A stretch of DNA of 64,000 nucleotides. It comes from an uncultured Holophagae bacterium. Lineage in GTDB: Bacteria; Acidobacteriota; Thermoanaerobaculia; Thermoanaerobaculales; Sulfomarinibacteraceae. Under the pieces are notes generated by a model. It was not told the DNA's origin, made no database searches, and was given only the letters and a program-made list of their open reading frames with translations. This document shows positions 18,731 through 62,163 of this stretch, one piece after another. The stretch is from NCBI GenBank assembly GCA_963710645.1, contig CAVQBD010000009.1, positions 1,551,199 through 1,615,198 on the forward strand, given 5' to 3'. The translations under genes were made by a program, and so were the position numbers. Each line of letters opens with the position of its first letter. Position 1 is the stretch's first letter.

Positions 18731-18772
18731 AGAAAATGAGAAATGAGAAATGAAAAATGAAGGACGTGAAAA
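18731..18772. repeat. Heptamer-periodic tandem array (AGAAAAT GAGAAAT GAGAAAT GAAAAAT ...)
   Basis: About 6 units of 7 nt, read directly, in the 159-bp gap between the LarA-like gene and phoD. Confidence 0.8.
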
Positions 18773-27734: not shown

Positions 27735-27740
27735 CAAAAA

Positions 27741-27855
27741 GTGAATAGTAAATAGTGAATAGTGAATAGTAAATAGACCGAGTTGGGGTCCCCACGCCCT
27801 TGCCGGACGGGAGGGGGCATATTCACTATTCACTATTTACTATTCACTTATTACT
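27741..27855. repeat. Pair of inverted heptamer arrays (GTGAATA/GTAAATA x5 and its complement x5) forming a perfect 27-bp inverted repeat
   Basis: 27741-27767 is the exact reverse complement of 27821-27847, checked base by base, with a 53-nt spacer. It lies between the convergent glpD and peroxiredoxin genes. The right arm contains the peroxiredoxin stop codon. Confidence 0.9.
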
Positions 27856-29505: not shown

Positions 29506-29597
29506 TGCAAGCCCCCAGAGATTTCAGAATTCGTGACAGCGGCAGAAACCAGGTTCAACCCGCCCCGCCGTGAATCTGGCGAGCACTATACCGTGTT

Positions 29598-29674
29598 CGG
29601 GACTCGGGACTCGGGACTCGGATGAAGCAGCCGCTCGTGCGCTCCGATCAACCGAATCCCGAGCCCTGAGCCCC
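29598..29674. repeat. Inverted heptamer arrays: CGGGACT x3.5 (29598-29622) and CCGAATC CCGAGCC CTGAGCC CC (29652-29674)
   Basis: Read directly. The two arms are about 19/23 complementary, including a G-U-compatible position. Confidence 0.75.
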
Positions 29675-31677: not shown

Positions 31678-31753
31678 GTGGAGCAGCGGGCAGTACCGCC
31701 CGCCCGGAATCGTACTGCCCACTTGACACGCGCCTTCTAATGGGTGGCAACCT

Positions 31754-31861
31754 GCCGGCGGCAGCGATTGTGGCCTGGGCCGGGAGGGATGTGGCGGGGG
31801 GTGACCCGGCCACTGGCCACTCGCTGGTGACGGCTGGTCACCGCGGCCGCAGGCCGCGAGT
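31754..31861. mobile_element. MITE-like GC-rich repeat, copy 1, flanked by 5-bp direct repeat AACCT
   Basis: It shares its termini with the copy at 52199-52320: GCCGGCGGCAGCGATYGTGGCC on the left and GGCCACTCGCTGGTGACGG...CCGCGGCC-loop-GGCCGCGAG on the right. AACCT occurs at 31749-31753 and 31862-31866. Confidence 0.5.
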
Positions 31862-31921
31862 AACCTCGGGGAGTGCCATCAGAATAGGGGCGCGATGAAA
31901 TCAGTGAATCGAAGCGAACGC
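31862..31921 (+). repeat. Partial, diverged copy of the 149-bp intergenic element (3' module)
   Basis: AACCTCGGGGAG...AAATCAGTGAATCGAAGCGAACGC aligns with 52053-52113 and with the reverse complement of 59700-59760. Confidence 0.6.
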
Positions 31922-32084
31922 TCGGGGAGCCTCCATCGCGCCCCGATTCTCATTGCGCCCCCCGTGAGGATGCCAGGCACGCCGATTCGCCCAATCGAGA
32001 CGGGTCATGTCTGCGGCCGCGGCGAATCGGGATGCCAGGCACCTCCGAGGGACGCGCCCTACGCTCCGGGTTGGCGGGGGACCC

Positions 32085-32168
32085 CATGCCTCATACCCCA
32101 CAACCCATACCCCGGGTGGGCGAAGGTCAACCCGGAACTCGCAACCCTCAACCCGAAACTCCTCAACG
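32085..32168. repeat. Heptamer-periodic arrays in one register (CATACCC/CACAACC then TCAACCC/GCAACCC/GAAACTC)
   Basis: 12 consecutive 7-nt units, read directly. The array runs into the stop codon of the patatin gene (32163-32165). Confidence 0.75.
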
Positions 32169-35933: not shown

Positions 35934-35978
35934 AGTAAATAATTTGCAATTTGCAATTTGCAATTTGCAATCTGTAAT
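35934..35978. repeat. Heptamer tandem array (AATTTGC x4 plus degenerate flanking units)
   Basis: Read directly. Lies between the convergent STAS gene and carB. Confidence 0.85.
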
Positions 35979-51778: not shown

Positions 51779-51906
51779 ACCCCCTCCCGCCCGGTCGGGA
51801 ACAAGGAGCAAGGAACATCCCCCGCCCGCTCAGGCAGCAGGGAGTAGCCCCGCCCACCTGGAGTCTGGGGGCGCTTTGGGCGGGCTTGCCACTCCGGGTA
51901 CCTTCA

Positions 51907-51941
51907 AGTTGAACGTTAAACGTTGAATGTTCCCACCCACC
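51907..51941. repeat. Heptamer-periodic array AGTTGAA CGTTAAA CGTTGAA TGTTCCC ACCCACC
   Basis: Read directly. A related array, ..CAATTTT GAATGTT GAGTTTC CACCCAA, occurs at 57791-57818. Confidence 0.7.
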
Positions 51942-51970
51942 CTCCAGGATTGTGAGAGGCCGCGTTGATC

Positions 51971-52119
51971 GGGCGTGCCGTCTCCGACGATTTTAAGTTG
52001 GGGCCGAACCTCTATCGTGCCACGATGGGTCCCAAATATCGTCGGAGGGGGCAACCTCGGGGAGCGCGATTGGGAGATGCTTGCGTCGAAGTCAGCAAAT
52101 CGAAGCGAGCGCGCGGGCC
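51971..52119 (+). repeat. 149-bp conserved intergenic element, copy B (possible structured RNA or REP/BIME-like unit)
   Basis: Aligns without gaps to the reverse complement of 59694-59842, with about 121/149 identical by my hand count. Contains the 10-bp stem CTCCGACGAT (51982-51991) / ATCGTCGGAG (52038-52047). Confidence 0.8.
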
Positions 52120-52180: not shown

Positions 52181-52198
52181 TACTGCCTACTGCCAACT
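52181..52198. repeat. Heptamer array TACTGCC TACTGCC (left flank of MITE-like copy 2)
   Basis: Read directly. The same CTACTGC unit resumes at 52321-52348 and occurs again at 54481-54494. Confidence 0.75.
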
Positions 52199-52320
52199 CG
52201 CCGGCGGCAGCGATCGTGGCCGTGGCCGTGTGCGGTGACGCGAGACGCACAAGAAGGTGGACTGGCAGGCCTACGGCCACTCGCTGGTGACGGGGAGTCG
52301 CCGCGGCCATCGGCCGCGAG
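52199..52320. mobile_element. MITE-like GC-rich repeat, copy 2, flanked by 5-bp direct repeat CAACT and sitting inside a CTACTGC heptamer array
   Basis: Its termini match those of copy 1 (31754-31861). CAACT occurs at 52194-52198 and 52321-52325. Conserved hairpins: GGTGAC/GTCGCC (G-U-compatible change relative to copy 1) and CGCGGCC-ATC-GGCCGCG (loop GCA in copy 1). Confidence 0.5.
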
Positions 52321-52348
52321 CAACTGCCTACTGCCTACTGCCTACGAG
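52321..52348. repeat. Heptamer array CAACTGC CTACTGC CTACTGC CTACGAG
   Basis: Read directly, 67 nt upstream of acs. Confidence 0.8.
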
Positions 52349-52414
52349 ACAGCGACTCAAAATGGTCCCTGCTAAAGTAAGAGGCCACTGACCCCACAGC
52401 GAGAGGTATGGCCC

Positions 52415-54385: not shown

Positions 54386-54400
54386 CGGTGCCAGGCACCG
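54386..54400. repeat. 15-bp perfect palindrome CGGTGCCAGGCACCG, 7 nt after the acs stop
   Basis: Read directly. Same core as at 44066-44078. Confidence 0.7.
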
Positions 54401-54480
54401 GCTCCCGCGTTCGGTTCGCCTCGCTGATCTCTGAGCTCTGCACTCTGGGCGGGAGGGGGCCGCGCCCTGCTCCCAGCACC

Positions 54481-54494
54481 CTACTGCCTACTGC
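54481..54494. repeat. Heptamer array CTACTGC x2, preceded by GATCTCT GAGCTCT GCACTCT at 54426-54446
   Basis: Read directly in the acs / K+ channel intergenic region. Confidence 0.65.
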
Positions 54495-54520
54495 CTCGAC
54501 TCATGTAAGATCATCCCACG

Positions 54521-55303: not shown

Positions 55304-55373
55304 CGGAGCCCCGAGCCCCGAGCCCCGAGCCCCGAGCCCCGAATTTCGAATTTCGAATTTCGAATTTCGAATT
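55304..55373. repeat. Two abutting in-register heptamer arrays: CCGAGCC x5, then TCGAATT x5
   Basis: 10 consecutive 7-nt units, read directly. The composition switches from GC-rich to AT-rich with no change of phase. Confidence 0.9.
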
Positions 55374-55387
55374 TTTCCATCATGAAC

Positions 55388-57776: not shown

Positions 57777-57875
57777 GAGTTTTGAGTGCTCAATTTTGAA
57801 TGTTGAGTTTCCACCCAACCGTTTGGAAGCGGCCAGGAACAATTCAATACTGAGAATTGAGAATTCAAAATTTCC
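57777..57875. repeat. Two AT-rich heptamer-periodic arrays (GAGTTTT GAGTGCT CAATTTT GAATGTT GAGTTTC, and ..GAATTGA GAATTCA AAATTTC)
   Basis: Read directly in the gap upstream of the radical SAM gene. The left array is related to 51907-51941. Confidence 0.6.
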
Positions 57876-59368: not shown

Positions 59369-59693
59369 TATTCCACCGCCCACCCGTTGTTAGACCTTTA
59401 ACTTCAGGTTCATCCGGGGAATCGTGGGGTGGCGATTCTGCGCGCCCGTCTCCGTGCCCGGATTCAGGCGGCAGGGGCAGCGACGGCAATCAGGTACAGC
59501 GTCCGTGATCGGCGGCTGCGTCAGCGATCAGGGGCCGAGGCGGTGATCAGGTGGGATTGCCCCGGATTACGGTCGCTGTTCACCGATGCTGCCATCTGCC
59601 CCGGGCACCGGTTGCTGTCCCTGTCCCTGTCCCGGCCGCAGCCGACTGCCGCTGATCGCTGATAGCTATCGCAGACACTGGCGCCGGAATCCG

Positions 59694-59842
59694 GGCCCTT
59701 GCGTTCGCTTCGATTCACTGACTTCGACGCGCCCATCTCCCAACCGTGCTCCCCGAGGGAGCCCCCTCTGACGATATTTGGTACTCGTCGCGGCAAGCTG
59801 CCTGTTCGACCTCAACCCAAAATCGTCAGAGACGGCACGCCC
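59694..59842 (-). repeat. 149-bp conserved intergenic element, copy C (inverted relative to copy B)
   Basis: Its reverse complement aligns to 51971-52119. The stem here is CTCTGACGAT (59766-59775) / ATCGTCAGAG (59822-59831), a compensatory C:G to T:A change relative to copy B. Confidence 0.8.
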
Positions 59843-59881
59843 GCCTGTCGCGCCCACGTCGCTCCGGGTGGGCGGGTGGTC

Positions 59882-59909
59882 TAGCCCCCAGATCCTAGCC
59901 CCTAGTCCC
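59882..59909. repeat. Heptamer array TAGCCCC CAGATCC TAGCCCC TAGTCCC
   Basis: Read directly. Overlaps the stop codon of the GT-C gene (59902-59904). A separate 6-nt array, CTGTCC x3, lies at 59615-59632. Confidence 0.7.
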
Positions 59910-62163
59910 TTGAAGGGCTCGTCCACCAACCACTGGTGGGGCTGGCGGGCTCGAAATTGAGGCCCAGGAGCACCACACCGAGGCGACGGGTGTCGGCTCC
60001 GTTCCCGCTCTCCGATGGGATGTAGGCGTCACTGAGAAGCCCGATGTCAGCCCCGCCATCGGCGATTTCGGCTGAATCGATGAACATCGAGACGAGCGAC
60101 TCTTCGGGTGTGAGCTCTCCTGCGAACCCCACGTCCAGGCTCTTTCTCCGGATCAGCAGGTTGGCTGGAGTTGGGCGGGGCGAGGCCAGCCGAAGAACCA
60201 GCTCGCCGGGTTCGTCCAAAGCGAGCCGGAGACGGGCCTCGGGTGCGAGCCAGACGCCGCGTCCCAAATCCTCAAAGCTCTCAGGTTGGTAGGCACCCTC
60301 GATCTCCAGCCGGAGTTTGAAGCGGTCGTTTTCGGTGGCGGCCGGCCCGCCAAAGGCGGCCCCGGGCGGTCGGACCACGACACCCAGTAGCTGCGTTGAC
60401 AGGGGTCTGTTGTCTCCGCTGCCCGGAGGGTAGCCGGAGGTGCGCGACAAACGCACGATGATCGGGCAGGCCGATGCCTGCTCGAGCCGGGTCCAGAGAT
60501 GTGCGGTTGGTGCGTCGCCGTCGAACTCAATGGACAGCCCCCCGGCTTCCATCGTCACCACCAGGGGTGCGGGACCGACAGCGGGTCGCAAAGCCAACCC
60601 CACCAGGGTGCCCGCCGGGGCCGGCGGCAACCACAGCTCGGCCGAGGGACCCGCCCACATGAAGGGCGTGCCGTCGGGCAGATGCTCCCGGGTCCACCAC
60701 TGGCCCACCGGCAGAGGTGGGTTGGAGATGAGTTCGGCTGATAGGAAGCGATTCTGCGTCAAGGGTTCGAGATCTTCGGACACCCGCCCGTAGGACCGAG
60801 TATCGCCGGTGAGTGACGGCATGTAGAGGTGGGGGTGAACCGTTGCCACCAGCCACGGCGTTGTGACGCCGAGCCAGGGCTCCGGTGCCCGCGGCGACAA
60901 GACCATGGGTGGGACCGGGTCACCGTTCGCCTCGAGCAGGTGCCACCAATACGAGGAGAAGACGTGGACCTCCGGCTCCACCACCACCGTCCACTGGCGC
61001 TGGGTGGCAACCGACGCGGCCCGGGTCGTTGCCTCCCAGGCTCCGAAGAGTTCGTCATGCTGTTCTTCGAGCAAGGGCAGCGACTTCCAAGCGACAACAC
61101 CGGCCACCCCGAGGGTGCCCGCCACCGCCACGGGGAGCGGCGCCAACGAGGCAGCACCGGCGAGCAGCGGCGCCAGCGCCACCTGGATACCCACCGAGTA
61201 GCGGGCGTAGGACCTATTCTGAAGGGCGTAGAGCTGAGCTGCGGTCAGTCCAATGATGATCAACCACGTAGTGGCGGCCCTGGGACCGACCCGTCGCCAC
61301 CAGACGAGGAGCCCCACCGCGGCGGCCGCCAGCAGAATGGCAGCGATGCCGGGTCCGCCAACGCCATTGGACATCCCTAAATTTTCGAGACCGGGCTTGT
61401 TGAGGTGCAGCCGCGCGGTGTGGAAGTCGGCGTGGGTTACGAACGGCTCGAGAAAGGCCGCCCAACCGCCCTCGAGATGGGCCATGACGGCCACCGAGAT
61501 TGTAACCAGCGCCAGCCCGGCCAGGAGACCGGGCAGGATCCTCCGAACGGGTCGCACCGTGTTGACGCCCACCAGCCAGAGCAGGGCCAGGGTGGGCAGC
61601 AGGATCGGCCGGACCAGGAAGGCTGCGGTCAGCAGCGGGGTGAACCAGGTGACGCGGCGGCCATCAAGTCCGCCCGGAATCATCGCGGCGGCCGCCAGGG
61701 CGAGGGTCACGGCTGCCCAGGTTGAAAAACCTCGCACAGAGTAGAGCCACGGCCCGGGCAGAAAGAGCACCAGCAGGGCGGCAGCGGTGGCCACCGCGGG
61801 CGGGGCCACCTTGCGGCCGAGGATCGACAGCGGCCACAGGGCCAGCACCGAGGCGATGGCCGATAGCCACTGCAGCGCCTGGTAGGGTGAGCCGGCCAAT
61901 GGTCGCAGCAGATTCCCGAGGGTTAGCAGACCGGGGAAGCCGGGCGGCTGTGGAAAGTGGGCGGCGAGCTCGAAGTGGAGCATGCCGCGGGCAAAGATGG
62001 TTTCATCCCACTCCCACGGACCGGAGGCCATCAGACAGGCCCGCGACAACACCAGGGCTACCGTGGCGGCCACGGTCAACACGACGTCCAAACGACGGTC
62101 GTCCAGGCCCCAAAGGAGGAGCAAAGATCCCCGTTTCGTGTCCACTGGAGTCGCGGCTGTCAT
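59902..62163 (-). CDS. GT-C-fold (ArnT/PMT-like) membrane glycosyltransferase with large C-terminal extracytoplasmic domain
   Basis: 753 aa. The first loop, PWEWDETIFARG...HFPQPPGFP, has the DE motif and HxPP-like loop of GT39/GT83 enzymes. About 11 TM segments, then about 350 aa of soluble sequence. Confidence 0.65.
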   Translation of the reverse strand: MTAATPVDTKRGSLLLLWGLDDRRLDVVLTVAATVALVLSRACLMASGPWEWDETIFARGMLHFELAAHFPQPPGFPGLLTLGNLLRPLAGSPYQALQWLSAIASVLALWPLSILGRKVAPPAVATAAALLVLFLPGPWLYSVRGFSTWAAVTLALAAAAMIPGGLDGRRVTWFTPLLTAAFLVRPILLPTLALLWLVGVNTVRPVRRILPGLLAGLALVTISVAVMAHLEGGWAAFLEPFVTHADFHTARLHLNKPGLENLGMSNGVGGPGIAAILLAAAAVGLLVWWRRVGPRAATTWLIIIGLTAAQLYALQNRSYARYSVGIQVALAPLLAGAASLAPLPVAVAGTLGVAGVVAWKSLPLLEEQHDELFGAWEATTRAASVATQRQWTVVVEPEVHVFSSYWWHLLEANGDPVPPMVLSPRAPEPWLGVTTPWLVATVHPHLYMPSLTGDTRSYGRVSEDLEPLTQNRFLSAELISNPPLPVGQWWTREHLPDGTPFMWAGPSAELWLPPAPAGTLVGLALRPAVGPAPLVVTMEAGGLSIEFDGDAPTAHLWTRLEQASACPIIVRLSRTSGYPPGSGDNRPLSTQLLGVVVRPPGAAFGGPAATENDRFKLRLEIEGAYQPESFEDLGRGVWLAPEARLRLALDEPGELVLRLASPRPTPANLLIRRKSLDVGFAGELTPEESLVSMFIDSAEIADGGADIGLLSDAYIPSESGNGADTRRLGVVLLGLNFEPASPTSGWWTSPSRD

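Follow-up and report, generated by a model that had tools for sequence, protein, structure and literature searches.

What kind of element recurs between the genes of an uncultured Holophagae bacterium, in opposite orientations and with a stem preserved by paired base changes? We addressed this question in a 64,000-nt stretch of contig CAVQBD010000009.1 (GenBank assembly GCA_963710645.1), hereafter the window, in which an original prediction had placed a 149-bp intergenic element in two full copies and a partial one. Our analysis indicates that the 149-bp element is probably a module of a lineage-specific, non-coding, dispersed mosaic intergenic repeat family of the Holophagae (Acidobacteriota). 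The units of this family are gained, lost, truncated and recombined, they pass between related species, and they are landing sites for a 122-nt insertion with a 5-bp duplication. The window organism is a relative of the uncultured Holophagae bacterium MFD03804.bin.1.68; other sequences compared with the window carry L numbers.

A repeat finder applied to the window returned copy B, 51970-52119(+), and copy C, 59694-59843(-), as inverted arms of 150 nt with 81% complementarity, which bore out the predicted gap-free match of about 81%. It also returned a partial match, copy A, at 31862-31926 (74% identical to B and 78% to C), where a partial third copy had been expected. The predicted 10-bp stem around a 46-nt insert could be read directly in both full copies, as CTCCGACGAT (51982-51991) and ATCGTCGGAG (52038-52047) in B and as CTCTGACGAT and ATCGTCAGAG in C. 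The stem continues past these arms to ~20-25 pairs, from GCC to GGC, at 51977-52052 in B and 59836-59761 in C. The 149-bp limits proved too narrow. BLAST similarity between copy C and L013 (95%) or the two paralogous copies in L002 (90%) spans 59878-59692, from the C-rich box to just past the core, indicating that the unit is ~187 nt long.

In element orientation, a full copy consists of a period-7 array, a C-rich box (consensus CCACCCGCCCACCC, a G-rich tract GGGTGGGCGGGTGG on the opposite strand), ~20 nt ending in GGGCGTGCC, the hairpin and a 60-nt core (consensus CCTCGGGGAGCGCGGTTGGGAGATGGGCGCGTCGAAGTCAGTGAATCGAAGCGAACGC). GGGCGTGCC is the invariant end of the 5' arm, and the hairpin is directly followed by GGCWMCCTCGGGG. 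The heptamer array and the CCCACCC box, predicted to lie on the same side, were both found 5' in B, C and the remaining full copies. Period 7 was the best period immediately 5' of the C-box in 28 of 30 5' modules, and the array unit varies from copy to copy; arrays of the type seen at B also precede 5' modules in L002, L005, L015, L016, L018, L028, L030 and L037. On the 3' side of the core, about half of the copies carry two CGGTGCCWGGCACCG palindromes, inverted and ~45 nt apart, like a REP doublet; in copy C a ~240-nt palindromic module (module D) takes the place of this pair. Judged by eye from the consensus and without statistics, the 5' arm (51932-51979) and the core start (52053-52090) resemble direct repeats, in B and in other copies; they share CC(A/T)C..GGAGCG(A/C)GGT...GGGCGCG(A/T)C, to which the core adds TGGGAGA.

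To describe the hairpin, we aligned 18 copies from at least five related genomes or populations and three unassigned metagenome contigs. Both sides were changed in 11 of the 22 stem pairs of the 76-nt hairpin; the compensatory C-to-T and G-to-A pair predicted from B and C, which we read directly, is one of these 11. The covariation score was 0.198, as against 0.110 +/- 0.007 for shuffled alignments (0 of 500 reached 0.198), and sliding the stem partners by 1-3 columns gave 0.04-0.08. Covariation beyond the single predicted pair, named beforehand as a check on the element, is therefore present. The hairpin is 73-77 nt long across copies. Twenty hairpins fell into ~7 stem haplotypes, several of them within one genome, each self-complementary over 20-25 pairs. 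Three further helices proposed by RNAalifold showed no both-side changes, and the 3' hairpin was disrupted by several variants. A single helix is thus strongly supported; a hairpin by itself cannot separate RNA from single-stranded DNA. Pairing is kept while about half of the hairpin bases change, which offers a system for asking why REP/ERIC-like hairpins persist. Two other ideas about the unit were rejected. A guide-target relation between each heptamer and its own hairpin was not seen, the longest common word being 6.4 nt with the own hairpin versus 6.0 nt with other hairpins; and a small peptide in the core, starting at the ATG after GGGAGA, was dismissed because this ATG is absent from L010 and L012.

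With the pattern CCTCGGGGAG-N28-38-AATCGAAGCGA we searched 185,579 species, each represented by a single genome. There were 14 true matches in 13 loci, all from one metagenome-assembled genome (MAG), that of MFD03804.bin.1.68, and a metagenome scan gave three further true copies (L022, L024 and L028). Hits outside the Holophagae (Archangium, Bryobacterales, Vicinamibacterales, Atopobiaceae, Rhodomicrobium and others) were judged to be chance matches with different spacing and dissimilar flanks. Viral contigs contained no match to the core pattern; a looser GGGCGTGCC...CCTCGGGGAG pattern gave 10 chance matches there, within unrelated sequence that lacked both the hairpin and any hit to the profile. 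Plasmid and phage collections contained no match to the composite spacer around copy C (composite C). A profile built from 12 full copies (nhmmer) identified 14 full-length and more than 30 partial copies in the 265 kb of the window plus loci.

When the window was searched with a covariance model built from the 18 copies, five copies were recognized: C scored 191 bits, B 162 bits and A 45 bits, and two degenerate copies beyond those of the original prediction scored 36 bits, at 31914-32085(-), and 25 bits, at 54407-54464(-). A model search of this kind had been suggested as a check, and further copies were indeed found in the window, the MAG loci and metagenome contigs. Copy A is real, and it is actually the core of a degenerate full element with a nested insertion. 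Gene callers had annotated an 83-aa open reading frame over one copy; the covariance model allows such spacers to be annotated, so that copies are not taken for genes. The literature on intergenic repeats and MITEs (miniature inverted-repeat transposable elements) of Holophagae and Acidobacteria gave no account of the 187-nt repeat family. The analysis thus documents a repeat family not described before in the Holophagae, a class known almost wholly from metagenomes and whose non-coding DNA was previously undescribed. The family breaks assemblies and is a marker of a narrow clade.

The mosaic character of the repeat was evident from the profile search, in which the 5' module, the hairpin and the core were each found without the others (hits to the 5' module alone cover profile positions 3-55/80). 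L016 and L018 have a form without the hairpin, GGGCGTGCC-GGGC-AACCT. A type-2 module, GCCGGCGGCAGCG...GGCCGCGAG, with subterminal hairpins and a length of 107-141 nt (mostly 121-122), lies between hairpin and core in ~9 copies, invariably at GGCAACCT^...^TAACCTCGGGGAG (GGCAACCT^TAACCT) and with a 5-bp AACCT duplication. Each of the ~10 type-2 insertions has a 5-bp direct duplication, either AACCT or CAACT. Besides the two in the window, the module is present in L005, L007, L008, L012, L013, L016, L018 and L037. One of the window modules stands free within an ACTGCCT heptamer array; deleting it (52200-52320) together with C52199 and one CAACT brought the array back in phase, a hallmark of small transposable elements. 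Judged from these sequence features, the type-2 module behaves as a MITE-like small transposable element that prefers one site inside the main repeat.

Other pieces move in and out of the mosaic as well. Module D is dispersed in its own right, with copies in L028 (88.6%) and L002 (83%). The 15-nt REP-like palindrome CGGTGCCWGGCACCG was found 3' of the core in L002, L010, L012, L024 and L028, with a window example at 54386-54400; window 31970-32045 has two occurrences of a related motif, GGATGCCAGGCAC. In L030 (11359-11650), as also in L031 (4582-4880), three consecutive units of array, C-rich box and GGGCGTGCC stand 5' of the hairpin. Their arrays differ (8-mer CTATGGGG, GTTGAAC and AGTCGAA), and the layout is repeat-spacer-like.

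Synteny around the window is kept in several related assemblies, and we compared orthologous spacers. The spacer between the MatE and acetyl-CoA synthetase (ACS) genes, which holds copy B, is occupied in the window as well as in L030/L031, the latter with another hairpin, a truncated core and an extra unit of array and 5' module; it is unfilled in L036, L037 and L033, where 184-235 nt contain arrays only. The spacer between a 753-aa gene and a radical SAM gene, which holds copy C, is occupied in the window as well as in L036 and unfilled in L037 (29 nt), another relative (130 nt) and a third relative with overlapping genes. Between ACS and an ion channel gene, L037 has a complete antisense element with the 122-nt insertion, and the window just the REP palindrome and the final ~20 nt of core sequence.

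The 530-nt spacer of composite C was 94-98% (97%) identical between the window and L036, whereas the flanking genes were 52-91% identical (mean ~80%). Between the two spacers there are 14 substitutions, besides a difference of one hexamer unit and another of a single base; of the substitutions, four cluster at the tip of the hairpin and three fall in the 5' arm. L036 is nearer to L037, with its empty site (86%), than to the window (82%). Given this kinship and the near-identity, vertical descent would require a loss in L037 and a rate at least 7-fold below that of coding DNA at every base of the spacer, its microsatellite tracts included. A recent lateral acquisition at the same spacer is the simpler reading of these alignments. 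The empty site of L037 is CCACCGGGCGTGGG and the composite is bracketed by CCACCCGCCCACCCG...CGGGTGGGCGGTGG; it looks like an insertion into, or an expansion of, a small hairpin. We rejected the possibility that an inverted pair of C-box and G-box encloses each unit as terminal inverted repeats, since only copy C and its orthologue in L036 show such a pair. Within the 753-aa gene, window 59997-60600, which adjoins the 97% identical spacer, has 52-60% DNA identity to L036, versus ~80% in the rest of the gene. A 530-nt spacer that is 97% identical across species with 80% identical genes is a system for the study of REP/ERIC-like spread.

Copies are intergenic and occur in either orientation, the sole exception being a weak partial hit that overlaps a heuristic gene call. 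Their neighbours are housekeeping genes with no relation to one another (MatE, acetyl-CoA synthetase, radical SAM, glycosyltransferase, patatin, SDR, sigma-54 activator, aldo-keto reductase, FtsX, MscS, tRNA synthetase, ECF sigma factor and others), and the spacers are convergent, divergent and co-directional. Gene orientations were called heuristically from G+C content at third codon positions (GC3).

We propose that the hairpin is kept because the element is handled as a folded single strand, most likely DNA. The agent would be a hairpin-recognising enzyme of the HUH/Y1 type (RAYT or IS200/IS605-like), and the conserved flanks would be its recognition or cleavage sequences; effects on neighbouring genes, such as the stability of transcript 3' ends, would be secondary. 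Acidobacteria have class 3 Y1-HUH genes, and ~600 atypical REP-like hairpins have been described in Solibacter (PMC6006769). By this analogy we suggest mobilisation by such an enzyme tentatively, with about half of the confidence that we place in the repeat family itself. Several observations weigh against the mobile repeat family. A scan of 30 proteins encoded near the repeats, in the 64-kb window and in loci of 1-22 kb (~400 kb of sequence), revealed no transposase or HUH gene. Neither terminal inverted repeats nor a target duplication was found for the 187-nt unit; since it leaves no such insertion scars, its mobility is deduced from presence/absence and near-identity. Orientation is non-random: by the heuristic calls, ~12 copies in co-directional spacers are antisense and 3 are sense. 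The fixed hairpin length of 73-77 nt, with pairing preserved through ~50% sequence change, would equally fit a selected RNA function, and the 60-nt core is strongly conserved without a demonstrated role. The 97% identity of composite C could also reflect very strong constraint, or be inflated by consensus polishing in metagenome assemblies.

A bolder version, in which the 187-nt unit is actively mobile between species through a strand-specific hairpin, or is a mobile non-coding RNA gene, and is in either case tied to the period-7 arrays, seems improbable to us. An active mobile hairpin would land at the junctions of period-7 arrays or in the loops of small hairpins, with a class 3 Y1-HUH protein, for example, as its driver. 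A mobile RNA gene would use the 5' arm and the 60-nt core as a scaffold that displays a hairpin of variable sequence and constant structure as its specificity domain. In both cases the coupling of the 5' end to changing heptamers would be part of the mechanism, targeting the arrays or generating them.

The original prediction offered either a structured RNA family or a REP/BIME-like unit. The likeness to REP/BIME held, with multiple copies, intergenic placement, modules, nested insertions and presence/absence; a gene-linked structured RNA did not, as there is no fixed neighbour, promoter or terminator and only the hairpin covaries. Neither a conserved sigma-70-like promoter nor a U-tract (intrinsic) terminator was found at the repeat, terminators being checked on both strands, and what lies upstream is a variable heptamer array. 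No constant gene neighbour or coherent downstream gene set, as for a riboswitch or leader, was found, and orthologous genes in relatives do without the repeat. As had been predicted, no Rfam family was recognized: the whole window, searched on both strands, had no match at gathering scores, and a search at E<=10 around copy B gave two noise hits (14-16 bits against cut-offs of 34-55). We consider it unlikely that the copies are a structured non-coding RNA family, acting in cis in untranslated regions or in trans as small RNAs, whose genes spread as repeats and in which the core and 5' arm form a scaffold for a functional, possibly specificity-determining hairpin. The strong covariation and near-constant length of the hairpin speak for such RNAs, as do stem-foot U-G pairs in both main subfamilies, a pair of C-to-T changes in L024 that keeps the GCGC/GCGC helix as G-U, the conservation of composite C throughout its length, and, for 19 of 20 hairpins, a more stable fold of the element strand than of the opposite strand (mean -41.0 vs -34.2 kcal/mol). 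The surplus of T-G over A-C oppositions, however, stems from positions 5-7, at the foot of the stem, in two subfamilies (at positions 8-22, G-T/T-G and A-C/C-A number 5 vs 4), so it is weak evidence for the assignment of a strand. The single-sequence folding z-scores are modest (-2.3 and -1.5), the helices outside the hairpin do not covary, and the copies lie in both orientations relative to genes, mostly antisense. They are also truncated, interrupted and lost freely between close relatives, and are restricted to a narrow clade (1 of 185,579 species representatives).

About as unlikely is a DNA or mRNA-end element that serves the host and is kept by selection and not by mobility, such as a nucleoid, gyrase or IHF-like site, a factor-dependent terminator or an exonuclease barrier. 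Roles of this kind have reportedly been proposed for E. coli BIMEs and Yersinia ERICs, and long GC-rich hairpins can block 3' exonucleases, as is established for REP. The strictly intergenic placement would agree with such a role, and so would a core conserved in sequence and not in structure, the G-rich tract opposite the C-rich box, and the position relative to genes: by the heuristic calls, a gene 3' end faces the 3' side of the copy in 18 of 24 core-containing copies (full or core-only), and ~6 copies lie between convergent genes. Yet the repeat has no U-tract terminator, the orthologous spacers of close relatives (29 nt; 184-235 nt) do without it, and a spacer that is almost the same in two species, when the closer relative of one has an empty site, speaks for transfer and not for local selection; we know of no protein that binds it. 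Chance similarity or an assembly artefact is hardly credible. The sources are metagenome-assembled genomes, in which repeats can be mis-polished, but the unit occurs in independent ENA, NCBI and JGI assemblies with different flanks and hairpin haplotypes, and these independent copies effectively refute an artefact; a 150-nt match of 81% and scores of 162-191 bits are far above chance. The dispersed mosaic repeat family remains the reading that we prefer.

Table. Coordinates of the repeat copies, inserted modules and period-7 arrays in the window.
Feature	Position	Strand	Basis or remark
Period-7 array GTTGAAC GTTAAAC GTTGAAT GTT, directly 5' of B	51908..51931	+	sequence read
5' module of B: C-box CCCACCCACCCTCC (51932-51945), spacer, GGGCGTGCC (51971-51979)	51932..51979	+	alignments
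76-nt hairpin of B, GCC...GGC	51977..52052	+	minimum free energy -40.6 kcal/mol; covariation
3' core of B, AACCTCGGGGAGCGCG..TTGGGAGATG..GCGTCGAAGTCAG..AATCGAAGCGA..GGGCC	52053..52119	+	conserved; basis of the collection-scan pattern
Period-7 array of GGGGCTA type, 5' of C; overlaps stop codon of 753-aa gene	59881..59910	-	sequence read
5' module of C: C-box CCACCCGCCCACCC (59879-59866) through GGGCGTGCC (59842-59834)	59834..59879	-	alignments
76-nt hairpin of C	59761..59836	-	folding, covariation
3' core of C	59692..59760	-	BLAST limits 59692-59878
Whole composite spacer around C	59372..59901	-	comparison with L036 and L037 orthologous spacers
Module D, ~240-nt imperfect palindrome with 17-nt terminal inverted repeats CCGGATTCCGGCGCCAG / CTGCCGCCTGAATCCGG	59457..59695	-	sequence read
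Core of copy A; C-box and both hairpin-foot remnants upstream, ~31690-31753	31862..31926	+	model hit 31805-31921, 44.7 bits
Type-2 module nested in degenerate copy A	31754..31860	+	AACCT flanks 31749-31753, 31862-31866
Degenerate second copy, inverted, tail to tail with A	31914..32085	-	model 36 bits, E 5e-7; inverted match 31867-31897 / 31934-31964
Remnant: REP-like palindrome CGGTGCCAGGCACCG (54386-54400) and final ~20 nt of core	54386..54464	-	model 54407-54464, 25 bits
Free-standing 121-nt type-2 module within ACTGCCT heptamer array	52200..52320	+	CAACT flanks 52194-52198, 52321-52325
Period-7 arrays	18734-18760, 27736-27855, 29597-29621, 32128-32159, 35941-35971, 51798-51817, 51908-51931, 52323-52345, 54480-54496, 55306-55374, 57851-57865, 59650-59672, 59881-59910		

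The intergenic DNA of the window contains many short period-7 tandem arrays whose unit changes from array to array; AAATGAG, AAATAGT, TCGGGAC, AATTTGC, ACTGCCT, GAGCCCC and CGAATTT are among the units. Of 487 strongly periodic 24-nt stretches in control intergenic windows, 438 had period 7, and L033, a 74% relative, has period-7 arrays without the repeat element. The variable arrays are a genome-wide feature that merits separate study. Between two convergent genes, a GC-rich segment has an AAATAGT-type array on either side (27736-27776 and 27820-27855); the arrays are inverted relative to each other, with 97% complementarity over 33 nt, and together make one long hairpin. At 55306-55374, perfect arrays of GAGCCCC (5.3 units) and CGAATTT (5 units) abut in this order, followed by a classical terminator-like hairpin, AAAGCCGCCCTCC...GGAGGGCGGCTTT. 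Before the ACS start codon, window 52346-52414 contains GACTCAGGACC..TTCCTGCTA.AGTG, which is kept in L030, L033, L036 and L037 regardless of the repeats upstream and is probably the promoter or leader of the ACS gene itself.

Finally, we compared the repeat with known systems. REP/BIME/REPIN elements with RAYT in Proteobacteria (PMC3733652) and the class 3 Y1-HUH hairpins of Acidobacteria and Planctomycetes (PMC6006769) are likewise high-copy, intergenic and hairpin-forming; they too form mosaics with other conserved motifs, are lineage-specific and comprise several subfamilies per genome. The inverted CGGTGCCWGGCACCG palindromes ~45 nt apart beside the core resemble REP doublets and match REP in size, but the hairpin of the repeat is 73-77 nt (76) and not 20-40 nt, twice the length of a REP. 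There is no GT[AG]G foot; the foot is GCC-G/A-T/C-..., and CGTC occurs in the stem of some subfamilies only. As to the 5' CnGA foot of class 3 Y1-HUH hairpins (PMC6006769), CTGA or CCGA occurs in 11 of 20 copies, at stem positions 8-11, inside the stem and not 5' of it; the remaining hairpin copies have TTGA, TTAA or ATGA there. The best-conserved parts of the repeat are its 45-nt and 60-nt flanks and not the palindrome, and no RAYT or Y1 gene is linked to it among the 30 neighbouring proteins.

The 187-nt unit also differs from MITEs and from PATEs derived from IS200/IS605 in having neither terminal inverted repeats nor a target duplication, and no cognate transposase was found. The nested 122-nt module does share fixed length, subterminal hairpins and a 5-bp duplication with them, and module D shares 17-nt terminal inverted repeats with MITEs. 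Tandem 7-nt intergenic units are known from the TAACTGA repeats of Beggiatoaceae (PMC4679880). These repeats and the cyanobacterial STRR resemble the period-7 arrays in having few copies per array and many arrays per genome; the heptamer changes with each array here, versus one or a few heptamers per genome there, and many of the arrays here abut a C-rich box. Integron attC sites (RYYYAAC...GTTRRRY) were considered and rejected, since only L028, L008b and L004 resemble them (TTTAAC/GTTAAA) and most copies have CTGAC/GTCAG; nor do copies form cassette arrays beside intI, being instead scattered among housekeeping genes.

The ERIC/IRU elements of Enterobacteriaceae are 127-bp imperfect palindromes, reportedly treated by Hulton in 1991 and by Wilson and Sharp in 2006. 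Like them, the repeat is 100-200 nt long, intergenic and found in either orientation, has a long imperfect hairpin with compensatory changes and internal insertions at fixed sites, and is conserved between species far above the flanking DNA. It has no sequence similarity to them, however, and is palindromic only in its central 76 nt, with asymmetric flanks; it is tied to period-7 arrays and has a much narrower taxonomic range. BOX of Streptococcus pneumoniae and the RIME/Sm-repeats of rhizobia are modular intergenic mosaic repeats. The repeat shares with them a few modules (5', variable middle and 3') in varied combinations and copy numbers, a stable predicted structure and the lack of coding capacity, but its sequence is unrelated, and its middle is one hairpin of constant length, whereas that of BOX is a repeated boxB. 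Thus, the repeat works like REP/BIME, ERIC and BOX but belongs to none of them.

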